From the IMG/VR virus record IMGVR_UViG_3300049729_000039: a stretch of 64,000 bases of DNA. The stretch is one strand, 5' to 3'. This DNA is from a virus. A program made the position numbers and the translations under genes. Under the pieces are notes generated by a model that saw nothing but the letters and a program-made list of their open reading frames with translations, made no database searches and had not been told where the DNA came from. This document shows positions 8,047-52,645 of the stretch, piece after piece; the first letter of the stretch is position 1, and each line of letters starts with the position of its first letter.

Positions 8047-8766
8047 TTAGTGAGGGATATTAGATACGTCTGTCAAAAGTAATTCTTTCGTTACTGCATC
8101 AATTTGATACATTTTTTCGAGTTCTTCGATATTATAGACCTTACCTTTAATACCGACTGTCATTGCAAGTATAGCACTTTTGTACTTGTCAGAATTATGT
8201 ACAAGTTTCTCAGGTTCCTTCTTTACAGGTGCGGGTGTTTTTGGCGGTGTAGGTTGTTGTGGTTTGCTCTGTGGAACAGGCTTGTCGTCTGAATGTTCTT
8301 TATCGCTGTCGTCGATCTTTCCGGTAGGAACTAAAAATGTGTACAAAAGAACATATTTTAAGGCATAGGTGCAACTCTTACCTGCACCCTTGTCCTGTGG
8401 GTCTACTCCTTGTCCTAATCCCTGTAATTCGATAAACTCACCGCTTGTATGACACAAAAGATATATAGTTTTAACCTCTGTAAATACAGATTGTTTCCGC
8501 TTCATGTCTTTGGGTGTAGATTTACTCCACGGGTCAACTTCTTCCCATTCCTGTATTTTAGTTGTTTGGTCTATTCCTATTGGATAAATAGCAAGTCCGT
8601 GTTTAGCCATTGCTTCACCAATAACTTTTTTTACTTCTTGGTCGGCTATTCCCTGATACGAATTGTCTCCTGTACCGATTTTCATTGTTTTTTCTACTCC
8701 TTTTACCTCCTGCATTACTGCTATAGTAGCTGCAACAAGGTTTGTAATACTTTCAGATTTGTTCAT
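8047..8766 (-). CDS. erf: ERF-family single-strand annealing protein
   Basis: The N-terminus ITNLVAATIAVMQEVKGVEK...YQGIADQEVKKVIGEAMAKHGLAIYP follows the ERF pattern (..v.k...n......Y.y..l..v...i.p.l.khGl.i.q). The C-terminal tail is P/K-rich. Confidence 0.6.
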   Translation of the reverse strand: MNKSESITNLVAATIAVMQEVKGVEKTMKIGTGDNSYQGIADQEVKKVIGEAMAKHGLAIYPIGIDQTTKIQEWEEVDPWSKSTPKDMKRKQSVFTEVKTIYLLCHTSGEFIELQGLGQGVDPQDKGAGKSCTYALKYVLLYTFLVPTGKIDDSDKEHSDDKPVPQSKPQQPTPPKTPAPVKKEPEKLVHNSDKYKSAILAMTVGIKGKVYNIEELEKMYQIDAVTKELLLTDVSNIPH

Positions 8767-16286: not shown

Positions 16287-16589
16287 TTACAATACTAAAT
16301 TTGAATTTTCAACAAATTGATTTTCGTGGTAAAGTTCTGATTTATGAACGTGTCCCAGGTTTGCACATTTTGCGTAATTATGTCTCCCGTGCCCTGATTC
16401 AATTTGAACAAAAACAAACCCTTTTATTATTTTTATTTGTCCCACTCCGCCCGATCCCATTGCTTTTTCCTCTATATTGTCAAAACCTATTTCTTTTTCA
16501 CGATCAATAACACGTTTATTGGCATTCACGATGTTCATAATTGATTTATATGAACCGCTTTCTTTGATTGTTTCTTGAATAGTTTTCAT
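16287..16589 (-). CDS. Hypothetical protein (N-terminus paralogous to 15774..16172)
   Basis: Shared N-terminal 20 aa; ATG ORF. Confidence 0.5.
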   Translation of the reverse strand: MKTIQETIKESGSYKSIMNIVNANKRVIDREKEIGFDNIEEKAMGSGGVGQIKIIKGFVFVQIESGHGRHNYAKCANLGHVHKSELYHENQFVENSNLVL

Positions 16590-17363
16590 GGCTTTAAATT
16601 TTATGATTAATTACCTAACCCCATATAGAAAAAAAAGATAAAACCTGCTTTGTTGTTTGCTTTTACTGTTGTATTTATAGGCTGTTGATTTTGCCCCTAT
16701 TTCAGATAGTCCATGTTTTTTGCAATATTTATAAACTTGCATCCAATTCATTTTTCCGAACATTTTAATTAAGTTTTTCATGGTTTAAAATATTAATAGG
16801 TTAATAATTTAAAAGTATGTATAACTGATTAGCTGATAACGAATGAATAAATAAAGTATATGCAATTGATAAAATAAGAATAGCTAATATACTTGTTATT
16901 GTGTTCGGGTAACGGTTTATAAGTGCTTTCATTTTACTTCAAGTTTTAAAATTATATTTGAAAGGGTTTCGGGAAAAATAACAATTCCTTTGAAGATTAC
17001 ATAAACATCTTTTGTCTTTTCTAATTTACGTAATTCAGGGAGATCAAAAAACGTAATTAGCCGTTCCGTTGTTTTACCTTTATTTATTGTTAATGTTTTC
17101 ATGTGATATAATTTTAAAATGTTTGAATTAAGAATACTGTAAATTTAATATTGAATTTAACGTTGTCAACAGTTTTTGTTATTTATAATGAAAATAATTT
17201 GATTATGTATATCAATTAGTTAGGTCATTGTTTAGACTAAATAAAGATAAGGAAGTCAAATATATAGAGTAAAATGTAAAAAAGTCGCCCCTTTTTTGAC
17301 CAGTGCACAAAAAAACGTAAAATAAACATTATCTACATTATTTATATTTAATATAAATAACAC

Positions 17364-17394
17364 TTGTATAATAGATTAAAAAGAACTATCTTTG
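17364..17394 (+). promoter_or_regulatory. Orphan Bacteroidota-type promoter (TTG-N20-TATCTTTG) with no downstream ORF
   Basis: cacTTGtataatagattaaaaagaacTATCTTTG. The next roughly 370 nt on the + strand are A-rich and ORF-free. Confidence 0.5.
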
Positions 17395-17723
17395 TATTTG
17401 TTCATTGAATATCTGAAAAAAAAACGACAATAATATAGATAGGGAATTACCCGACCAAAAAACGTACATTGAAACGTTGAGAAGTTAAAAGGCCAAAATA
17501 CCAGGAAACCGGCTAAATTAAAACCAGATCAAAACAGTGATCTAAATACTGAGGTGATGCAATCAGATAAAACAATCTAACAAATGTTAATCCGATTAAG
17601 GTATAAAGAGACTACAAACAGAGTAAACAAGCTAAAAGCACACTAATATCGTTTTAACAGTAAAATTAAACAGTATAACAGTGAAGCAATTTAGTTTTAT
17701 AAGATTGTAGAGAGGTTAAGACA

Positions 17724-17767
17724 TAAAAAAAGCCCTCATAGTTGAGAGCTTACAATATTGAGAGGGT
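17724..17767 (-). terminator. Possible terminator after gene 17774..17977
   Basis: ccctc/gaggg stem with a large loop, followed on the minus strand by CTTTTTTT. The stem is weak. Confidence 0.35.
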
Positions 17768-17773
17768 GGAAAA

Positions 17774-17977
17774 CTAATTACCAATGAATGAGTCAAATGT
17801 TTTCGGGTATGCTCTTTTTAGATACTCCCTATCAAGCCAGAAAAATATCTGTGCTTTCTTTGTCTTACTTGGAAATTGGGGATTAACCTCAACCCGACAT
17901 TTTTTGTCTGAACGATAAAGGATATTTTTAATTTTATATCCATTATGCAATGCTGAATTTAATGTTCTTGGTGTCAT
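17774..17977 (-). CDS. Hypothetical basic protein
   Basis: 67-aa ATG ORF followed by a U-tract hairpin. Confidence 0.5.
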   Translation of the reverse strand: MTPRTLNSALHNGYKIKNILYRSDKKCRVEVNPQFPSKTKKAQIFFWLDREYLKRAYPKTFDSFIGN

Positions 17978-18147
17978 ATAATTTAATTTAAAAAGGTTAA
18001 TAGGTAAGGATTAAAGGTTAATTAAAGAATGAGTGAAATTTTTTAACCAAAATTAAAAATTGTTTCTTGCTTATGTTTTTAATTTTGTATTTTATTGGGA
18101 GTTTAACAACTTTCACATAGTTAATCCCATCGCTACTTGCCATATAT

Positions 18148-18321
18148 TTAGTTTTTAACATATTCACGGGTATTTATATTCTTAAATAAATCCTCATCAT
18201 TGGCATTTGTGCCCATATACATATAATTACCAGCGTAATTAATAGCCGAAGGGTTTAAACTTAATACATTTGATTTAATAGCTGCATTAAATGCGTGTTC
18301 TGGGTTTCGGTAAGTGTTCAT
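18148..18321 (-). CDS. Hypothetical protein
   Basis: ATG at 18321, preceded by the ttttttaaattaaacacg leader; the track start at 18363 is upstream of it. Confidence 0.45.
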   Translation of the reverse strand: MNTYRNPEHAFNAAIKSNVLSLNPSAINYAGNYMYMGTNANDEDLFKNINTREYVKN

Positions 18322-24647: not shown

Positions 24648-25067
24648 TCATTGGTTTTCTTTTAAAATTTGATTAACCTTGTTTGCGTAATATCTGAAGT
24701 CGCTGTCAAACTTAAACTTCAGTTCGTATTCTTTCTTGTAAAAACTGATCGTAGAGTGATCTCGTTTTAATAATCTGCTAATTTCTTTGTCGGGTATCTT
24801 TTCCTTAAAACACCAGTTAGCGAAAATAAGCCTAGCGTATGCGTTATATCGTTCTTTACCTCTTTTTGATAAATCTGTAAGGTTTACATTCAAAACGCTG
24901 TGTAGTGACCTTAAAACAGGGTCTACGTCAACGACTGGACTAAATCTACCTGTGATTTTAATCCTCACGTCCGAATAACCGATTCTTTGGAAAAGTTCCG
25001 TTAAAAACCGTTCTACCGATTCTGGCGGGACTTCTCCTTTTGAGGTTGCTGTTATGGTTAGGTTCAT
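24648..25067 (-). CDS. Second DnaA domain-IV-like HTH protein
   Basis: YARLIFANWCFKEKIPDKEISRLLKRDHSTISFYKKEY parallels DnaA domain IV (..aR.iamyl......s...Ig..l.rdHsTv.ha). Confidence 0.55.
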   Translation of the reverse strand: MNLTITATSKGEVPPESVERFLTELFQRIGYSDVRIKITGRFSPVVDVDPVLRSLHSVLNVNLTDLSKRGKERYNAYARLIFANWCFKEKIPDKEISRLLKRDHSTISFYKKEYELKFKFDSDFRYYANKVNQILKENQ

Positions 25068-25711
25068 TTGAATTTAAACCCAGTTAGTTTTATGATAGTA
25101 GCAACAGGAACCTCGTTGCCGTTCTTGCCATTGCCGGAATCATCAATGGTGTTGTTGAATAAAAAGGCTCGATACGTGTGCTGGGCTTTAATGTATAATA
25201 CTTTCCACATCTGAGTTGGAACATACACTCTACCTATCATTTTTAGTTCTCCGATAGACCCACACCGAACATAAACAGAATCAACCGTACTCGCTATGTT
25301 GCGTGTTATTTTCTCTAAATTTTCCCAACTTCCTGCATTAAATGCGTGATACTGAGCAGCCATGTTCGAAAAGTAAAAACACTCTCTTTGGACTTGATCT
25401 GTCTGACACAGGTTATCATCGCACGGATCATTATGGCCTTTGTCAAACCCTGACTTTAGATAATCTTTGGCTAAATTTGTTTCATCTGGTAATAGCGGAT
25501 CTGGGGCAAACGTATTATTTCTTTTCAGTGGTTGCATACATTTTACTTTAGCTTTGGTGTCCCACCACATAACAATTACGGGTCTGTGCATAGAAATACT
25601 GTACACCGTAGTGTAGTTTGTGTGTTTGATTCTTATAGTGTCAGTCTTTGGAATCTGACCCAAGCAGATGTTGGAAATAATTAATAAAATTAATAATAAT
25701 AAGGTTTTCAT
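25064..25711 (-). CDS. Secreted DNA/RNA non-specific endonuclease (Serratia NucA / Endonuclease_NS type)
   Basis: Signal peptide MKTLLLLILLIISNICLGQ. FDKGHNDP fits the DRGH active-site motif, and SNMAAQYHAFNAGSWENLE fits N..PQ....N.g.W..lE. Confidence 0.7.
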   Translation of the reverse strand: MKTLLLLILLIISNICLGQIPKTDTIRIKHTNYTTVYSISMHRPVIVMWWDTKAKVKCMQPLKRNNTFAPDPLLPDETNLAKDYLKSGFDKGHNDPCDDNLCQTDQVQRECFYFSNMAAQYHAFNAGSWENLEKITRNIASTVDSVYVRCGSIGELKMIGRVYVPTQMWKVLYIKAQHTYRAFLFNNTIDDSGNGKNGNEVPVATIIKLTGFKFK

Positions 25712-26088: not shown

Positions 26089-26301
26089 TTATTCGGTTAA
26101 ATCAATAGGTTCAAGTAATTTAGAATCGTTCCAAATAAGGTTCTCAAAATCAAACAAGCATTTTTTACACAGTTCGATCTTTTGGTCAATTCTTATCTGG
26201 TGAATACTGTCGTTCATCCTGCGCTGTTGTTTTAATTGGAATATATCGGATTGAAGTTCTCTTATGCAGCGTTTAAGATTGCGTTCTGTGTCGGGGGTCA
26301 T
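26089..26301 (-). CDS. Hypothetical helical protein
   Basis: 70-aa ATG ORF. Confidence 0.5.
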   Translation of the reverse strand: MTPDTERNLKRCIRELQSDIFQLKQQRRMNDSIHQIRIDQKIELCKKCLFDFENLIWNDSKLLEPIDLTE

Positions 26302-26339: not shown

Positions 26340-27083
26340 TTACAAATTATTTTCGTATTCATTTATTGCTTTAAAGATTTGATGTGCCACTTGTGGGACT
26401 ATGGCGTTACCTGCTCCGTGAATGGCCTGCTCAGCCAATCTTCTGGGAAACCCATAATGTTCACTACACACGAAGGGCATGGCGTTCCTTTGAATAAAGT
26501 CGACAAACCTATTTGTTTTCCTATTTCCAATCTCCGTTGGTTGCAATTGTTCCAATATATTCCCCTGTCCCGAAAGTCCGATGCTGACGGAGTAGGCAAT
26601 AAACCAAACCCTGTATCTTTCGTGTTCTGCGCCAACCGACGAAGCTGGAATAATAACCGGTTGTATTTTGTACCCCTCGTTTTCCAACGATGAACATATA
26701 AACTCGAACACTGCTGAAAATTTTGATGAAGCAATAGCAAAAACGTTTTCGGCAACGATCCACCTGGGCTTAATCTCTCTGATCGCTCTAAGCATCTCTG
26801 GAAATAAATATCTTTCGTCGCTTTCTCCAAGCTGTTGTCCTGAGTTGCTAAAGCTCTGACAAGGAAATCCACCTGTGAGAACATCAATTCTGTTTGCATA
26901 TTTTGTAAAATCAGTTGTTTTTATATCTTCAAATAATTCTGCATTAGGCCAATAATATTTCAGCACTTTTTGTCCGAATGGATTTATCTCACAATGAAAT
27001 AAATTATCCCACCCCGACCATTCAGCAGCCAGATCGAAGCCACCAATACCAGAAAATAAACTTCCATGTGTTAGCTGTGTCAT
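26340..27083 (-). CDS. DNA (cytosine-5)-methyltransferase, compact form
   Basis: Motif I is SLFSGIGGFDLA, motif IV is GGFPCQSFSNSG, motif VI is IVAENV, and motif X is GNAIVPQVA. ATG at 27083; the track start at 27104 is TTG. Confidence 0.9.
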   Translation of the reverse strand: MTQLTHGSLFSGIGGFDLAAEWSGWDNLFHCEINPFGQKVLKYYWPNAELFEDIKTTDFTKYANRIDVLTGGFPCQSFSNSGQQLGESDERYLFPEMLRAIREIKPRWIVAENVFAIASSKFSAVFEFICSSLENEGYKIQPVIIPASSVGAEHERYRVWFIAYSVSIGLSGQGNILEQLQPTEIGNRKTNRFVDFIQRNAMPFVCSEHYGFPRRLAEQAIHGAGNAIVPQVAHQIFKAINEYENNL

Positions 27084-27181
27084 AATATCCGTTTTTTGCC
27101 ACAAATTAGCTTGTGTAATGAACGATTAATCCAAATTGATATATAGATACCACTTTGACTTTATCGTGTCTTAAATCGAAG

Positions 27182-32789: not shown

Positions 32790-33569
32790 TTAAACCTCTG
32801 TTGTATATGCTAGCGTAAACTCTTTTTCAATAGTCCGTGAGCAGGGAATAATGACAGCACTCTCCACGGTAGTAGTAAATTCCAGGCTTTCGTGTACTCC
32901 GTCTTTCTCCGCTTTCTCTGCCAATGATGTTTTTAGCCAGTCGTTAATAACAATCATTGCCGAATCTACATCAACAGCCTGTAAGACAAACGTGCTTAGA
33001 TAGTCGTATTCCTCTTTGTGAACCCGGACGTCTATCTGATAGAACTTGGTGTCAGCCTTGCCGTCTACACCTACTGGTTTTAGGATGTCTTTGATAATAA
33101 TACAGTTGTTAAAATCCTTAACAGCAAGAATCATAAACGAACTGTCAAAATTCAACTCGATAAAGTCCTTTGCGATGTCAAGTGCCATCTGCACCGAGTT
33201 GGCATAAAGCAGGAATCGGTGTTTCTTTTGACCGATGGTTGCCGTAACAGCCCACGGTACTATACCACAGTTCACATGAGTAGATTGACGTTTTTGGTTG
33301 CTTACTGCTACTTCTTTGATGTCTCCGGCAATGAGGTGAAAGTTAATACTGGAAAGTAGATTCCCGTCAATAAGTAAACCTTTTTGTGCAATTACTTCAT
33401 TGCGCTCGATAGGCACCACCTCTCCGTTATCGTCCACAAAGTTCTCAGTCCATGTTCTTTTCAATGTTTCGGCAAGGTACATTCCGTTCATTTCTGCTGT
33501 GTCCGTAGTCACGAATCTTCTTTCGTTTTTACGTGTTTCAAGTAATAATTCTTTGTTTTTCTTTTTCAT
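32790..33569 (-). CDS. Hypothetical protein (two internally similar alpha/beta modules)
   Basis: 259-aa ATG ORF whose start codon abuts the recombinase stop codon. Confidence 0.55.
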   Translation of the reverse strand: MKKKNKELLLETRKNERRFVTTDTAEMNGMYLAETLKRTWTENFVDDNGEVVPIERNEVIAQKGLLIDGNLLSSINFHLIAGDIKEVAVSNQKRQSTHVNCGIVPWAVTATIGQKKHRFLLYANSVQMALDIAKDFIELNFDSSFMILAVKDFNNCIIIKDILKPVGVDGKADTKFYQIDVRVHKEEYDYLSTFVLQAVDVDSAMIVINDWLKTSLAEKAEKDGVHESLEFTTTVESAVIIPCSRTIEKEFTLAYTTEV

Positions 33570-34135
33570 TACTTTGATTTTTTAATTGGTTTTAAACTCA
33601 ATGTCTTATATGCCTTGGAAATCTCCTCGTCTGTGATTCCTAGGTATATACGGGTGATCGCTGTGCTTGAATGTCCGAGTATTTCACTTAACAGTATCAG
33701 CGCAGCATCGTTCTCTCCGTTGTTCTCCCATAAAGAGCGAGCAAAAGTCTTTCGCATCGTGTGATTGGAAACATTTACGTTTCTGACATTTATCCTGCCA
33801 ACAAGTTTTTTTAGCACCATAGAACATTGATGTGATTTGATAGGAACCACAAAATCGTTGTTTGACTTGACGAGATCATCTTTGCATTGGTTTATCAGGT
33901 CAATCACGTCCTGCGAAATCGTTATATCACGTTTCTTCTTGGTCTTTTCTTCCTGTACTTTGATCGTGGGTTTTATGTCACAGTAACGCAGTTTTAGAAT
34001 GTCACCGATACGCAACCCAGTAAAGAACCCTAACGTGCAAAATGCAAGGTATTGTGTGCTTTGTAATGTATTATCCTTTTTCAGTAACGATATAATACGT
34101 AAAGCATCACTCCATTTTAAGTAGTCGCTTTTCAT
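33569..34135 (-). CDS. int: Small tyrosine recombinase/integrase (catalytic domain only, 188 aa)
   Basis: GLRIGDILKLRYCDI supplies the box I Arg, HTMRKTFA is H-x-x-R, and LGHSSTAITRIYLG supplies the His and the catalytic Tyr. Confidence 0.8.
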   Translation of the reverse strand: MKSDYLKWSDALRIISLLKKDNTLQSTQYLAFCTLGFFTGLRIGDILKLRYCDIKPTIKVQEEKTKKKRDITISQDVIDLINQCKDDLVKSNNDFVVPIKSHQCSMVLKKLVGRINVRNVNVSNHTMRKTFARSLWENNGENDAALILLSEILGHSSTAITRIYLGITDEEISKAYKTLSLKPIKKSK

Positions 34136-34574: not shown

Positions 34575-34595
34575 TTTAGACTGATTCTAAATTAC
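34575..34595 (+). promoter_or_regulatory. Conserved palindromic 20-mer, copy A
   Basis: tttagactgattctaaattac, 43 nt upstream of the -7 box. Confidence 0.6.
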
Positions 34596-38569: not shown

Positions 38570-38738
38570 AGCATCATTTCTAATAGTTCGTCAACAATAG
38601 TTTCGGGTATGTAAACCGTTGAATCGGGTGGTTGATTATTAATTCGTCTCAGACTGTCCGTGAACTCAAACCAATTCTTCCATCCGTTAATCACAGCCCA
38701 GCAATTTTTTACCTCTAAAGAACTCTTAAATTTTAACA
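38566..38738 (-). CDS. Hypothetical protein (57 aa; below the track cutoff)
   Basis: My translation is MLKFKSSLEVKNCWAVINGWKNWFEF.... Both ends overlap neighbours (ATGA junction). Confidence 0.4.
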
Positions 38739-39488
38739 TAGTGAGTTTAGGTTTAGTTCAAATTTATTATCATTGAAATTAAAATGAGCAAAATCTTGGA
38801 AAAAATAAGCAGCCCAAAAATCATACACGTGAGCAGCTTCTTCTGCTGTTTTAAAATATCCTAAAAATGTATCTTTATTATTTGATCTTATCCTTGCCGA
38901 GTATAACCCAAATTCCATTTTATATGATACGCCCTTAAATGTGCTTGATGATGGAGTAGATTTTTTCAGAGCATTCCTTGTGTTTTGTGGGCATGTACAT
39001 ATTCTTAAATTACATTTTCTGTTATCCAATCCATTATGATTTATGTGATCAATATGAATACTTTTATCCGTAATTCCCAGTATTAGTCTATGCAGTAAAG
39101 AAGACTCTCCATTTTTTAGTTTTCTTGAATCCCTAGATGCGTACCATATTTCACTTTTATTGCCACACTTTATAGCATGCCACTTAAATGATGAAACTAT
39201 GTCATAATCATCCCTATCTATTAGTGTCCATTTATTTTTGGATAATTGAATCCATACTGAATTATCATCAATATCATCAGGCCTAATTGGAAAATTAAGT
39301 TTTCTCCCTAATTTATTATCAATAACATATTTATCATACTCCCTTGCAGCTTCTATTTTTTCATAAAAATAACCTAAAATAATGTTTTTGAAATTAATCA
39401 TTATGTGTGATATATACATAGTTCCACACTTATTTAACATGACTCCTATATATTTATCATTATCAATGACAACCTTTTTCCTTATCAT
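38733..39488 (-). CDS. HNH homing endonuclease with AP2-type DNA-binding domains
   Basis: HIDHINHNGLDNRKCNLRICTCPQN is the HNH core. FKGVSYKMEFGLYSARIRSNNKDTFLGYFKTAEEAAHVYD is AP2-like, as is the N-terminal YIGV...ILGYFYEKIEAAREYD. Confidence 0.8.
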   Translation of the reverse strand: MIRKKVVIDNDKYIGVMLNKCGTMYISHIMINFKNIILGYFYEKIEAAREYDKYVIDNKLGRKLNFPIRPDDIDDNSVWIQLSKNKWTLIDRDDYDIVSSFKWHAIKCGNKSEIWYASRDSRKLKNGESSLLHRLILGITDKSIHIDHINHNGLDNRKCNLRICTCPQNTRNALKKSTPSSSTFKGVSYKMEFGLYSARIRSNNKDTFLGYFKTAEEAAHVYDFWAAYFFQDFAHFNFNDNKFELNLNSLC

Positions 39489-41799: not shown

Positions 41800-41820
41800 T
41801 TTGGAATCGTTCTAAATAAT
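41800..41820 (+). promoter_or_regulatory. Conserved palindromic 20-mer, copy B
   Basis: tttggaatcgttctaaataat, immediately upstream of the -33 TTG of the portal promoter. Confidence 0.6.
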
Positions 41821-44803: not shown

Positions 44804-44824
44804 TTTAGAATCATTCTAAATTAC
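44804..44824 (+). promoter_or_regulatory. Conserved palindromic 20-mer, copy C
   Basis: tttagaatcattctaaattac; perfect inverted repeat TTTAGAA-tca-TTCTAAA, starting right after the stop codon. Confidence 0.65.
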
Positions 44825-46028: not shown

Positions 46029-46060
46029 TTTGCATTCATTCTAAATAATAACTATCTTTG
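46029..46060 (+). promoter_or_regulatory. Bacteroidota-type promoter (TTTG-N20-TATCTTTG)
   Basis: The spacer contains the half-motif cattctaaataat. The ATG at 46064 is 3 nt downstream, so the mRNA may be leaderless. Confidence 0.55.
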
Positions 46061-46063
46061 AAT

Positions 46064-46600
46064 ATGGAACTTATTGAACTTGGAGAAAACCTTGTTGTAG
46101 ATAAATCTAAATACAGCAAAGCAGTAAAAGAACTCAATAAGTTTCTTAAAGATTATGGATTGAGCAAAACTAATTTGCATTCATCTATATTTAGGTATGC
46201 GAAAATAAAATACGGTATTTTATTGAATGGAAAATCTGAGCTAGAATATCAGATATGGTTTGTTAATAAATTTCAGATAACCAAAAGAACAGAGGTAAAA
46301 ATACAAAAGCACAAATTTGTAAGCAACTTTACTCCACCGAGTAGAAAATTGGAATATTGGGAATTTTTACAAACTTCATATTGGTTTGGTATTAAAGATT
46401 TAGTTCTCAGGAGAGACAAACACAAGTGTATTGCTTGCGGATCAAAGAAATCATTACAAGTGCATCACAAGGTCTATACTCACCGATTTTCAGAACATAA
46501 ACACTTAGATGACTTAGAAACATTATGCGGAGATTGCCATAAATTCGTTCATAGTATAGATGAAAAACAAATGATAGAACAACATTTGAACTCAATCTAA
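46064..46600 (+). CDS. HNH endonuclease (free-standing)
   Basis: CIACGSKKSLQVHHKVY...HLDDLETLCGDCHKFVH. ATG at 46064; the track start at 46058 is TTG. Confidence 0.75.
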   Translation: MELIELGENLVVDKSKYSKAVKELNKFLKDYGLSKTNLHSSIFRYAKIKYGILLNGKSELEYQIWFVNKFQITKRTEVKIQKHKFVSNFTPPSRKLEYWEFLQTSYWFGIKDLVLRRDKHKCIACGSKKSLQVHHKVYTHRFSEHKHLDDLETLCGDCHKFVHSIDEKQMIEQHLNSI

Positions 46601-50611: not shown

Positions 50612-50631
50612 TTAGAATCGTTCTAAATTAC
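50612..50631 (+). promoter_or_regulatory. Conserved palindromic 20-mer, copy D
   Basis: ttagaatcgttctaaattac, starting at the nucleotide after the stop codon. Confidence 0.65.
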
Positions 50632-50650: not shown

Positions 50651-50681
50651 TTGCATATTAGGTTTGGTTGGTGTATTTTTG
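50651..50681 (+). promoter_or_regulatory. Bacteroidota-type promoter (TTG-N20-TATTTTTG)
   Basis: cTTGcatattaggtttggttggtgTATTTTTG, 18 nt before the ATG at 50700. Confidence 0.6.
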
Positions 50682-50699: not shown

Positions 50700-50930
50700 A
50701 TGAAAGCACAAGAAGCATACGAAAGAACAATTAATAGTGAGCTAAATACGGTTTACCTTGAAATACAGGATGCAATAAACGATGGATGTCTGAAACTTTT
50801 AACTAATAGACTATCAAAACAAACTGTGAATAGGCTATTATTAGAGGGGTATGATGTAACAAAAGATAAAACTCCATCTGGTAAAAAACTATCATTGGTA
50901 GATTGGGATATGAATAAAAGAATTGATTAG
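50700..50930 (+). CDS. Hypothetical protein
   Basis: 76-aa ATG ORF. Confidence 0.5.
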   Translation: MKAQEAYERTINSELNTVYLEIQDAINDGCLKLLTNRLSKQTVNRLLLEGYDVTKDKTPSGKKLSLVDWDMNKRID

Positions 50931-50946
50931 ATTGATTCTAAATTAC
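50927..50946 (+). promoter_or_regulatory. Conserved palindromic 20-mer, copy E
   Basis: ttagattgattctaaattac, overlapping the stop codon. Confidence 0.6.
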
Positions 50947-50955
50947 ACCCAATAC

Positions 50956-50986
50956 TTGCATTGACTAAAAAATTGTCATACATTTG
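50956..50986 (+). promoter_or_regulatory. Bacteroidota-type promoter (TTG-N20-TACATTTG) driving the RNA locus
   Basis: cTTGcattgactaaaaaattgtcaTACATTTG. No ORF follows. Confidence 0.6.
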
Positions 50987-51085
50987 TATCGTATTCCACA
51001 CGTGGAAAAACGCTAGTCTCCCATCAGACCGTAAATATTGGATAAACCGATCTGATTTGATGCCCATCTATTCGGGTCGGTAAAT

Positions 51086-51159
51086 GGGTCACTAGCTCAG
51101 TTGGTAGAGCATCTGTTTTGCAAGCAGAGGGTCTTGAGTTCGAATCTCAAGTGTATCCA
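51086..51159 (+). tRNA. tRNA-Ala(UGC)-like, with a 1-nt bulge in the acceptor stem
   Basis: D-arm is GCTC-AGTTGGTA-GAGC. Anticodon arm is TCTGT-TTTGCAA-GCAGA (anticodon TGC at 51119-51121). T-arm is TTGAG-TTCGAAT-CTCAA. The acceptor pairs GGGTCAC with GTG(T)ATCC and keeps G3-U70 and A73. No CCA is encoded. Confidence 0.6.
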
Positions 51160-51490
51160 CAAATAAGTTCTTTAAAATACTAAATCATTCAGCCAGCGGG
51201 GAGACCTATCCTAGTGTTATATCGATCAATGGCTAGGGGATTCGTAGTATTTATTATTACGACGCAGGCTGAATGATTAAAATATTGGTAATATTCGTGC
51301 GGTGGCAGACACTTATCGAATTGGTTACACACCTAACATAAGGTCTCGTAGGTGGTGAATAAGGTCAAACGGTGGACGGTTGGTGAGACAAAGCGTCCGA
51401 AGTCATAATAACTGATCAGATTGTGATGGGATTCCGAATAAATGTAACTTGAATATTACCAACGTTCTTTAAAATAATAGTAGTGAGATT

Positions 51491-51534
51491 ATCGACTATG
51501 ATGTAAGACGACGGTTCGAATCCGTCATACTCCA
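51491..51534 (+). ncRNA. Candidate acceptor piece of a permuted tmRNA-like RNA (T-arm + 3' acceptor strand)
   Basis: GAC-GACGG-TTCGAAT-CCGTC-ATACTCC-A. No matching 5' acceptor strand lies upstream, but a perfect one lies downstream at 51596-51602. Confidence 0.4.
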
Positions 51535-51595
51535 CTCAACTCATTGGCTGTGAGAGTGATAAGATTGATTAATGATCGCTTATCACAAATTATTC

Positions 51596-51757
51596 GGGGT
51601 ATTAAGGCTTTTCGATTGCATTAAAGAGGGTAACATAAAGAAGCTACTATCGCCTAAACGGCAAATCAATACAATTAAACCAAGAATTAGAAATGGCTGC
51701 ATAGTCGTTTCATTCGGTTAAGAGAGGTAAGTTAGACTTGCTTCTCTTTTCTTTTTT
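51596..51757 (+). ncRNA. Candidate coding piece of a permuted tmRNA-like RNA
   Basis: GGGGTAT pairs with ATACTCC over 7 bp, including G3-U70. It is followed by TAAGGCTTTTCGAT (compare tmRNA GGnUUYGAC), then a short frame GGC...ATG GCT GCA TAG (51660-51704) ending in Ala-Ala, then a terminator. Confidence 0.4.
51720..51757 (+). terminator. Rho-independent terminator closing the RNA locus
   Basis: agagaggtaag-ttaga-cttgcttctct (11 bp including two G-U pairs), followed by tttcttttttg. Confidence 0.7.
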
Positions 51758-51768
51758 GTCTATCTTTG
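51738..51768 (+). promoter_or_regulatory. Bacteroidota-type promoter (TTG-N20-TATCTTTG) of the tail operon
   Basis: The TTG sits inside the terminator's 3' arm and TATCTTTG is at 51761-51768. A 121-nt leader precedes the ATG at 51890. Confidence 0.6.
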
Positions 51769-51889
51769 TAGGAGATTGGGTGGTGTGAGAAAAAACTGTA
51801 ATCAGGTGAGACGGAACCTGACATTAAACAAAAAACGCTTCAGCGCAGAAGTGCGGAAGCAACCACCACCCGATCTTAACTTATAAGAT

Positions 51890-52645
51890 ATGATTGATAG
51901 GCACGTTTTCGAGAAGCAGTACATGGATCTGGACACTGATGGGCGCAACTTACCCCTCAATGCCACGAGGGAGGTGTATAACATGCGCAGTTCAAACACT
52001 TCATCCAACGGAAAAGGGTGTATGGAAGCGGTTAAAAGCAACGTAGACATCACCACACTCGATTTAAACGTTGGTCATCCTGGGTCTGTTCCTACCGTCA
52101 CCTATTACAATTCTACTCAATCACAGACGTTCGTTCGTAACAACTGCGGGTCTGGATACTCTGGAAGCACAGTTACCTATACAGTCCCCTACGCTACATA
52201 TTCGTCTACGATAAGTCAAATAGCAGCAGACCAGATGGCACTTGATGATATATCAGCAAACGGACAAAACAACGCCAACTCAACAGGAACCTGTACCATT
52301 ATTCCTAGTGGGACACTGAGTGCATATTTCATCAAAGGTGATGGAGCACCCGGTGGTTATCTTAAAATATCCAAGAACGGAACGCTGATAATCGACATCG
52401 AAAGATACACTGGTTCTGATTCGTTCTCGATAACCGACGGTGATGCAATACATATCGAAGCGTGTTCAGCAACAAGTTCGGGAGTAGGTAACTCTATCAG
52501 TGTAGGAATCTACTCTTCTGTAAGCGGAGAACTGTGGTCTACGACACTTTCAGGATATAATCAAGTAATCACACACGACTACACATATCACACGGCAGAC
52601 GGTACCATTTCAGTCCAGTGCGGTGTTCCAATATTATACTCATGA
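51890..52645 (+). CDS. Tail/virion protein with a Cys-flanked SQ..A....A module
   Basis: 251-aa ATG ORF. RNNCGSGYSGSTVTYTVPYATYSSTISQIAADQMALDDISANGQNNANSTGTC resembles a module I recall from Bacteroidota surface/phage proteins. Unverified. Confidence 0.55.
   Translation: MIDRHVFEKQYMDLDTDGRNLPLNATREVYNMRSSNTSSNGKGCMEAVKSNVDITTLDLNVGHPGSVPTVTYYNSTQSQTFVRNNCGSGYSGSTVTYTVPYATYSSTISQIAADQMALDDISANGQNNANSTGTCTIIPSGTLSAYFIKGDGAPGGYLKISKNGTLIIDIERYTGSDSFSITDGDAIHIEACSATSSGVGNSISVGIYSSVSGELWSTTLSGYNQVITHDYTYHTADGTISVQCGVPILYS

Follow-up and report, generated by a model that had tools for sequence, protein, structure and literature searches.

The tRNA region of phage T4 holds extra stable RNAs, and phage tRNA clusters can more generally hold small stable RNAs besides tRNAs, which are cut from polycistronic precursors by host RNase P and 3′ processing enzymes. 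Other structured RNAs, GOLLD and ROOL, are phage-borne and lie beside tRNA genes; they are single RNAs of ~500–800 nt with one conserved architecture. Transfer-messenger RNA (tmRNA), which rescues stalled ribosomes, is likewise encoded by phages, and the two-piece form accounts for 53 of 133 unique phage tmRNAs called by ARAGORN, mostly in marine phages (PMC9004378). Here, we describe a unit without long open reading frames (ORFs) at positions 50956–51768 of a 64,000-nt stretch of viral DNA, IMG/VR record IMGVR_UViG_3300049729_000039, which we call the window and to which all coordinates refer unless another locus is named. This unit is very probably a polycistronic stable-RNA operon of a Bacteroidota (Flavobacteriia-like) phage, consisting of a leader hairpin, a tRNA-Ala(UGC), two structured modules that we named HP1 and HP2, and a circularly permuted (two-piece) tmRNA. 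It resembles T4-type tRNA clusters in joining tRNA and non-tRNA structured RNAs in one predicted precursor, and differs from them in its repeated junctions of 13–15 nt, in modules that are shuffled between related phages and in that one of the modules is a tmRNA.

The organization of this tmRNA resembles that described for the two-piece tmRNAs of Alphaproteobacteria, some Betaproteobacteria and cyanobacteria (RF04321; RF01849–RF01851), with the same order of 3′ half, intervening segment, 5′ half and tag frame. The G3:U70 pair, A73, the T-arm, a D-loop analog, the inter-piece helix P2 and a tag ending in AA are shared, and the RF04321 model is matched from end to end. However, the phage copy scores below the gathering score, lies outside the alpha, beta and cyano lineages, does not encode CCA, specifies a 14-residue tag that starts with Gly, and showed no pseudoknot (no dedicated search was run). 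In addition, a helix that we call h1 pairs the 5′ end of the acceptor piece with the stretch just before the resume codon; the comparison of h1 and pseudoknot PK1 with the alpha, beta and cyano architectures draws on Rfam alignments and general knowledge.

Among phages, the tmRNAs of the OM43 phage Melnitz, of pelagimyophages and of cyanophages (PMC9004378) likewise combine a permuted ssrA gene with a phage promoter and no phage smpB, often beside phage tRNAs. Those tmRNAs match the alpha-, gamma-proteobacterial or cyanobacterial lineage of their hosts, which use the two-piece form, whereas the host phylum here is a one-piece phylum; furthermore, the present locus has no glutamine riboswitch and no GenBank phage relative. 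Because phage-encoded two-piece tmRNAs are documented, the kind is already known, and the one in the window represents a new, divergent lineage. As far as its sequence tells, this lineage is distinct in having no alpha, beta or cyano affiliation, no pseudoknot found (again without a dedicated search), a host phylum with one-piece tmRNA and a shuffled cassette array. The tRNA-like-domain-only tmRNA of mycobacteriophage DS6A is a further phage-encoded derivative dependent on host SmpB and alanyl-tRNA synthetase (AlaRS), and differs in having no tag frame (PMC4131195), whereas a 14-codon frame is conserved here.

Structure and conservation of the probable two-piece tmRNA

Judged by gene order, motifs and covariation, the segment 51477–51757 is a divergent circularly permuted tmRNA gene, in which the 3′ half precedes the intervening segment and the 5′ half, as it does in all relatives (Table 1). 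The acceptor piece starts with the h1 strand AUAGUAG (51477–51483), followed by the 3′-side strands of P2 (51489–51506) and the T-arm (51510–51526; GACGG-UUCGAAU-CCGUC, a 5-bp stem with a 7-nt T-loop), which adjoins the 3′ acceptor strand AUACUCC (51527–51533) and the discriminator A51534 (A73). The coding piece opens with the 5′ acceptor strand GGGGUAU (51596–51602), which forms a 7-bp acceptor stem with AUACUCC, including G3:U70, and continues with the D-loop analog, the 5′ side of P2 (51616–51633) and the second h1 strand CUACUAU (51644–51650). The tag frame (51660–51701) begins at the resume codon GGC at 51660, encodes GKSIQLNQELEMAA, ends in GCU GCA and is followed by the stop codon UAG (51702–51704) and a 3′ hairpin. 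An earlier note on this DNA, made from the sequence alone, had recorded an orphan T-arm/acceptor; the T-arm and acceptor strand are indeed present at 51510–51534, but they are not orphaned, since the 5′ acceptor strand lies 61 nt downstream.

The tmRNA is carried by six related metagenomic phages (L001, L003, L007, L008, L010 and L019; these and further L numbers are labels of related metagenomic phage loci). In L001, L003, L007 and L019 it occupies the same head-to-tail junction, after the capsid-neighbour gene and before the DUF5977/tail genes, and the relatives' contigs keep the synteny of capsid-side gene, RNA island and DUF5977/tail genes. L008 and L010 were retrieved by DNA pattern and also hold the permuted tmRNA; L008 was the sole true locus found with the pattern AACATAAAGAAGCTANNATNNC, the other seven (L012–L018) being chance matches in protein-coding sequence, and L009, from another DNA pattern, was a chance match as well. 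The RNA island is lacking altogether in L020, L022 and L027, and no such island exists at the corresponding position in Elemovirus, the closest cultured relatives. BLAST of the unit and the 12 kb around it against GenBank phages, a check proposed in the earlier note, returned tRNA-level matches only and no phage relative; the homologues came from metagenomic contigs. The protein encoded just upstream of the unit has only 12 homologs in 5.8 billion clusters. In IMG/VR, neither the T-arm/acceptor as an exact pattern nor the capsid-side protein next to the unit found a match, and a scan of GTDB genomes for the tmRNA 5′ block found nothing.

Covariation was assessed over seven distinct sequences (the window and its six relatives), for which the RNAalifold consensus fold recovered h1, the P2 stack, the T-arm, the hairpin of the intervening segment and the terminator. 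In these five helices, 96.1% of the cells are paired versus 43–51% in slid controls, 34 of the 48 pairs are altered on both sides, and none of 500 shuffles reached any of the measures. P2 (columns 14–32 with 221–239) contributes 15 pairs, 11 of which are altered on both sides, at 95% pairing; h1 contributes eight, all paired; and 10 pairs of the 13-bp terminator stem are altered on both sides across relatives. For the T-arm and acceptor stem together, all cells are paired (100%) and 9 of 12 pairs are altered on both sides, which was equalled in 0 of 500 shuffles. This includes all five T-arm pairs and four pairs of the acceptor stem, whose U:G at 3:70 is invariant in all seven lineages, as is A73. 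Even between the window and its closest relative, L001, the two stems show compensated differences.

The tag frame consists of 14 codons plus a stop in 7/7 lineages, with Gly first and AA last (GKSIQLHQELEMAA, GKIINMNTEVKAAA, GNNYRLQPELKAAA, GNVYQLNPEVKAAA and GKTISLYPEVKAAA, besides that of the window), and the stretch leading up to the resume codon does not vary. The hairpin of the intervening segment has six of its seven stem pairs altered on both sides, while its loop AUUGAUUAAUGAUCG is nearly invariant in six of the seven loci. This segment, which is expected to be discarded, is more conserved in sequence than the tRNA-like stems. The near-invariance of AUUGGCUGUG and the loop in six of seven lineages, on a stem that covaries, suggests a sequence-specific role, in processing or otherwise.

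A permissive Rfam scan matched RF04321 at 51484–51704 over the full model (1–213) with 36.1 bits and E = 2e-5, and the cyano_tmRNA model gave the window copy 27.8 bits. ARAGORN at 95% of its default threshold (-ps95) reported a permuted tmRNA at 51445–51795 with the tag GKSIQLNQELEMAA* and a 3′ tRNA domain at 51499–51535. Among the relatives, L003 (50.4 bits) and L019 (48.4 bits) pass the RF04321 gathering score of 47 bits, and the permuted tmRNA of L007 and L010 is called by default ARAGORN. The best lineage-specific Rfam model is alpha for L003 and L019, beta for L010 and cyano for the window, L007 and L008, in every case far below threshold, and the tmRNA thus belongs to none of these three lineages.

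Several points weigh against this identification. The window copy misses the RF04321 gathering score, and default ARAGORN finds no tmRNA at the window locus. A pseudoknot such as PK1 was not found, in a comparative fold that excludes pseudoknots by design and without a dedicated search. Because the 5′ acceptor strands were picked out by their complementarity, the 100% pairing of that stem is partly built in. Some T-loops depart from UUCGA (UGCAAUU in L001, CUCGCUA in L003). Finally, the Pfam summary of the window's 91 ORFs, covering 25 of the 28 families matched, contains no smpB, CCA-adding enzyme or aminoacyl-tRNA synthetase; tmRNA function would therefore depend wholly on host factors. We consider the missed family-model threshold a matter of detection, not of biology. 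Each 5′ acceptor strand is the unique match beside the conserved D-loop analog. At the position of PK1 lie h1 and an invariant internal loop (GAGA / CAUAAAGAA). The junction repeat (Table 1) was also tried as one strand of a PK1-like pseudoknot (UUCUUUA/UAAAGAA) and rejected, as nothing covaries and the 5′ strand is missing in L019.

The unusual variability of T-loops and D-loop analogs in this family, together with the fact that no pseudoknots were found (no dedicated search was made), would also suit a non-tagging decoy that would inhibit trans-translation by titrating SmpB or AlaRS of the host, as has been proposed for the tRNA-like-domain-only RNA of DS6A (PMC4131195, PMC11915505). A decoy is nevertheless very unlikely, because all seven lineages have retained the 14-codon frame with its Gly start, AA end and in-frame stop through many substitutions, and because G3:U70, A73 and the sequence before the resume codon are invariant. 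Another idea is that the T-arm/acceptor is an attP core, a 3′-terminal piece of a host tRNA or tmRNA gene that serves site-specific integration. The phage does encode a tyrosine-recombinase-domain protein (33569–34135), and tRNA and tmRNA genes are common integration targets (PMC4383910), but the recombinase gene is 17 kb away and specifies only 188 aa. Furthermore, the segment belongs to a complete permuted tmRNA with a covarying 5′ strand and a tag frame, and it diverges strongly in sequence among close relatives, with changes that compensate each other. An attP remnant is thus extremely improbable and was rejected on the covariation, the tag frame and the distant, short recombinase gene.

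From the gene order, helices, identity elements and tag frame we infer a course of processing, charging and tagging that follows what is established for two-piece tmRNAs (PMC11915505; Keiler et al. 2000 as cited there). Host RNase P would cut the operon transcript 5′ of G51596 and 5′ of the tRNA, and 3′ trimming and the CCA-adding enzyme, which is required because CCA is not encoded, would complete both acceptor ends. The 61-nt intervening segment would be discarded and the two pieces held together by the acceptor stem, P2 and h1. Host AlaRS would then charge the tmRNA via G3:U70, host SmpB would deliver it to stalled ribosomes, and translation would resume at GGC, appending the 14-residue tag. 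The likely purpose is ribosome recycling while infection yields truncated mRNAs or host mRNA is degraded; the phage encodes a non-specific DNA/RNA endonuclease.

The probable RNA operon and its variable modules

From the stop at 50930 to the ATG at 51890, the largest plus-strand ORFs measure 40, 49 and 36 aa, in agreement with the earlier claim that none reaches 60 aa, and the sole long ORF of the region, 51802..52056, is antisense. A protein-coding reading based on the 49-aa plus-strand ORF at 51572–51721 and on antisense ORFs was rejected: indels of 1, 2, 5 and 19 nt break the frames in relatives, and no coding frame is kept in homologues. The whole 1279-bp interval recurs base for base in three further contigs that stem from three different samples, which excludes an assembly artefact. 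The operon extends from its own promoter to an intrinsic terminator, a 13-bp hairpin followed by a T-run. The earlier note was correct in describing a non-coding unit that runs from promoter to terminator and contains structured RNA, in placing the promoter TTG-N20-TACATTTG, a palindromic 20-mer copy near it and the strong hairpin with its U-tract, and in stating that the unit shares its expression signals with the protein operons: across the window, the promoter type recurs before ORFs and the palindrome upstream of phage promoters.

Table 1 Features of the stable-RNA operon and its borders (positions in the window)
Feature	Position	Strand	Basis or remark
Palindromic promoter-upstream element TTAGATTGATTCTAAATT (earlier "copy E")	50927..50944	.	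Family TTAGAATNNTTCTAAATT enriched in window
Bacteroidota-type promoter TTGCA-N18-TACATTTG of the RNA operon	50956..50986	+	Window-wide enrichment; kept in relatives
Leader with conserved hairpin C (51046–51081, tip GAU-GCCC-AUC)	50987..51085	+	Single-sequence folds
tRNA-Ala (anticodon UGC), CCA not encoded	51086..51158	+	ARAGORN; Rfam RF00005
Junction repeat copy 1, AAGTTCTTTAAAATA, between tRNA and HP1	51165..51179	+	Shared with relatives
HP1, predicted 96-nt structured module with 16-bp closing stem	51183..51278	+	Inverted repeat; homolog in L023
HP2, predicted 178-nt multi-helix module with perfect 12-bp closing stem	51285..51462	+	Inverted repeat; homologs in L019 and L001
Junction repeat copy 2, ACGTTCTTTAAAATA, between HP2 and tmRNA	51462..51476	+	Just before the tmRNA in 6/7 relatives
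tmRNA acceptor piece	51477..51534	+	RF04321; ARAGORN -ps95; covariation
Intervening segment of the permuted gene (61 nt; hairpin stem GUGAUAAG/CUUAUCAC, loop AUUGAUUAAUGAUCG)	51535..51595	+	Conserved in relatives
tmRNA coding piece	51596..51757	+	RF04321; ARAGORN; covariation
Intrinsic terminator, doubling as 3′ hairpin of the tmRNA coding piece	51720..51757	+	Hairpin 51720–51748 and T-run
Promoter of the following DUF5977/tail gene, TTGCTTCTCTTTTCTTTTTTGTCTATCTTTG, overlapping the terminator and outside the RNA unit	51738..51768	+	CTATCTTTG conserved in relatives

The cloverleaf noted earlier as tRNA-like is a genuine tRNA-Ala(UGC), called by ARAGORN and scoring 54.8 bits with RF00005 (gathering score 29). 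In its acceptor stem, one additional U bulges from the 3′ strand (GUG-U-AUCC), and G3:U70 is kept. It is missing from the closest relative, L001.

HP1 and HP2 are closed by the two perfect 12-bp helices that had been claimed to exceed chance. Both are present, as the inverted repeats 51183–51198/51263–51278 (16 nt, 94%, including the perfect 12-mer) and 51285–51296/51451–51462 (12/12); two perfect inverted repeats of at least 12 nt occurred together in 0 of 2000 dinucleotide shuffles of the region and a single one in 1.9%. The region 51160–51483 has a fold z of −3.9. A homolog of HP1 lies between two junction repeats in L023 (2121–2218), with ~71% identity and seven pairs altered on both sides. 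HP2 has homologs in L019 (77% identity) and in L001 (both ends conserved, centre replaced), among which five pairs are altered on both sides and the indels are not multiples of 3, marking the modules as non-coding. The stems are thus kept in relatives, as a conserved RNA would require, but they close two independent cassettes and not one architecture. Two sequences stand behind HP1 and three behind HP2, a point that counts against this part of our reading, and the case for selection on their structure is suggestive but thin. The tandem ATAAGGTC-N5-GGTGG / ATAAGGTC-N4-GGTGG duplication described in the earlier note is present within HP2 (51338–51355 and 51359–51375) and is not kept in relatives. 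Neither module has an Rfam match at E ≤ 10, pattern scans of IMG/VR (HP1 and two HP2 blocks) and of GTDB genomes (HP2) returned nothing, and no convincing homology was seen between HP2 and the long leaders of L003 and L007.

Neither module occurs more than once in the window or in any relative, and both are found only inside the RNA island. This bears on a further idea, that HP1 and HP2 are insertions resembling miniature inverted-repeat transposable elements (MITEs), carried passively, with the 12-bp helices as terminal inverted repeats and target-site duplications at their flanks. Perfect terminal repeats, the flanking direct repeats (GTTCTT)TAAAATA and the variable presence between close relatives would be in line with such mobile elements. 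However, a single copy in 64 kb, empty pattern scans of IMG/VR and GTDB genomes, compensatory substitutions in the internal helices and a flanking repeat that borders tRNAs and tmRNA in the absence of any insertion (L008) make MITE-like elements very improbable, and the idea was rejected.

The junction repeat, a 13–15-mer, divides modules in L001, L008, L010, L019 and L023; HP1 and HP2 are each bordered by (AA/AC)GTTCTTTAAAATA or its core TTAAAATA, and in relatives the repeat occurs after tRNAs, after the leader hairpin and before the tmRNA. What lies between the repeats varies. L001 has HP2 and the tmRNA, without tRNA-Ala and HP1; L008 has a tRNA-Met and then the tmRNA only, with nothing at the place of HP1 and HP2; L010 has an unrelated hairpin between junction repeats at that place, and L003 and L007 have small hairpins there. 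In L019 and L023, HP2 and HP1 are found elsewhere in the array, with HP2 of L019 further upstream and other modules between it and the tmRNA. Because presence, place and order vary in this way, we read HP1 and HP2 as probable optional RNA cassettes, not as domains of one ornate RNA. They would be released as separate small RNAs, with the AU-rich junction repeats most likely being endonuclease processing sites, and the same repeats may also serve as recombination points for cassette exchange.

The headline of the earlier note had been one large ornate RNA, the whole 0.77-kb transcript forming a new class in the manner of GOLLD and ROOL with tRNA-like parts embedded. Such an RNA would share with GOLLD and ROOL that it is ORF-free, structured, phage-borne and beside tRNA genes, and the single promoter-to-terminator unit without ORFs, the well-folding middle part (z = −3.9) and the long perfect helices would agree with it. 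Here, however, the modules are separable: close relatives have gained or lost some of them and keep them in different orders. No helix connects one module with another, and the tRNA and the tmRNA are each complete and need no other part, the two-piece tmRNA being the largest identifiable part. The cmscan search that had been proposed as a check (Rfam 15, 50850–51950, E ≤ 10) found only tRNA and tmRNA models, with RF04321 below threshold, and two chance-level matches; there were no GOLLD, ROOL, HEARO, group I/II introns or self-cleaving ribozymes. A single ornate RNA is therefore highly improbable, and the fallback of the same note, a composite RNA operon, proved correct.

Another way of relating the modules to the tmRNA would leave HP1 and HP2 attached as a 5′ extension of its acceptor piece. 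The gene would then span ~51160–51757, with the permutation breaking between the post-tag hairpin and the arc of pseudoknots PK2–PK4. HP1 and HP2 lie immediately 5′ of h1 and P2, exactly the place of PK2–PK4 in a circular permutation. PK2–PK4 of one-piece tmRNA are established as a dispensable scaffold, and the varying content at this place (HP1 and HP2; HP2 alone; another hairpin in L010; small hairpins in L003 and L007; none in L008) would fit such a role. On the other hand, L019 and L023 have other modules and a tRNA-like element between HP2 or HP1 and the tmRNA position, L008 and L019 have no such extension, and the junction repeat that follows tRNAs also divides HP2 from the tmRNA. We therefore regard an attached extension as unlikely and retain separate cassettes as the reading. 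A bolder version of the cassette reading, put forward tentatively and with considerable doubt, is that this phage group possesses an exchangeable stable-RNA cassette array joined by the conserved junction/processing repeat AAGUUCUUUAAAAUA. HP1 (~96 nt) and HP2 (~178 nt) might then be two undescribed classes of phage structured RNA with functions of their own, e.g., as decoys or regulators acting on host RNA or the translation machinery, and the two-piece form of the tmRNA might have arisen separately, on phages, in a phylum of one-piece tmRNA.

Two further elements were observed in the arrays of relatives. One resembles a tRNA with a long variable arm (GGCAGAG.GG..UAAUGCGACUGUGU.AAC... T-arm ... 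CCA; L019 4140–4222 and L023 2238–2316); it is called neither by ARAGORN nor by Rfam, and in L019 no base separates it from the start of the tmRNA acceptor piece. The other is a small module, AATTAATTCAGGCGTATGCCGGTGAGAAGTG.AGTCGTATAA.ATGGGACGACATTTGAGACG, which L006 (7320–7390) shares with L010, where it lies on the minus strand upstream of the tmRNA; the island of L006 combines it with the leader hairpin and contains no tmRNA.

The shape of leader hairpin C is shared by seven loci with differing stems and fold z-scores of −3.2 to −5.3, each sequence having been folded singly as the stems are too divergent for a MAFFT alignment. Counterparts with the same tip stand at the matching place in L001, L003, L006, L007, L010 and L019. 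In relatives, the hairpin is bordered by AAA...UUUUAAAC, whereas the window has the tRNA-Ala directly 3′ of it in place of the U-run. Judged by sequence, hairpin C and UUUUAAAC together resemble an attenuator or intrinsic terminator that precedes the RNA genes of these relatives.

Host, implications and genomic surroundings

The host is probably a member of the Bacteroidota, class Flavobacteriia, given the TAnnTTTG promoters, the lack of a Shine-Dalgarno signal (core upstream of 7% of ORFs versus a background of 7.5%) and the Flavobacterium-type portal homologs, for which the 74 phage records all have Flavobacterium, Cellulophaga or Maribacter as hosts, bar one record without a host. In Bacteroidota genomes, 24,380 standard tmRNA instances stand against 48 permuted ones (PMC11915505 Supplementary Table 2). 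The occurrence of the two-piece form also in phages of this phylum, whose cells almost always have the one-piece form, is relevant to the number of times that the permutation arose and to the question of whether phages spread it. The native Bacteroides SsrA tag is GETNYALAA (bioRxiv 10.1101/2025.03.18.644028); the phage tag, with its 14 residues, Gly start and ...AAA or ...MAA end, is unlike it, which makes the usual degradation of rescued proteins during infection a testable question. For annotation, the locus is an example of a functional-looking tmRNA, in a phage family without a cultured relative, that is overlooked by default ARAGORN and the Rfam gathering threshold, and the seven gathered sequences could seed a model recovering this tmRNA lineage. 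With repeated junctions and two conserved structured RNAs, the cassette-like RNA island offers a small and well-defined system for studying phage non-coding RNA.

The promoter type of the operon is enriched throughout the window, with 31 occurrences of TTG-N17-22-TAnnTTTG (shuffles, 8.8 ± 2.9), most of which have the form TTGCA-N18-CTATCTTTG and precede ORFs; the operon promoter itself is conserved in sequence in L019 and L023. The palindrome family TTAGAATNNTTCTAAATT has 23 strand matches in the window versus 3.3 expected, with copies ~10 nt upstream of the TTGCA −33 boxes of phage promoters. The form TTAGAATCGTTCTAAATT recurs about 11 times (e.g., 50612–50629, 50927–50944, 41801–41818, 44805–44822, 34576–34593 and 26120–26137) and looks like a candidate binding site of a phage transcription factor.

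Pfam matches elsewhere in the window include the non-specific DNA/RNA endonuclease (25064–25711), the tyrosine-recombinase-domain protein considered above, a C5 cytosine methylase (26340–27104) and an ERF recombinase (8047–8766). One further ORF matches Phage_ProQ_C_like and is possibly an RNA chaperone. A stretch of ~1.5 kb at 16589–18148 has no ORF of at least 70 aa on either strand, no Rfam match at gathering thresholds and no tRNA. HNH-type endonuclease genes are dispersed in the structural module of this phage group at positions that differ by relative (L006 5474–5995; L019 971–1486; window 46058–46600 and 38733–39488). Directly upstream of the RNA operon, a 76-aa ORF (50700–50930) with its own promoter (50651–50681) is found only in the strain of the window (also L024–L026) and is absent from L001, and L019 and L023 have unrelated small genes in its place. 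The head-to-tail junction is thus an insertion hotspot for genes as well as for RNAs.

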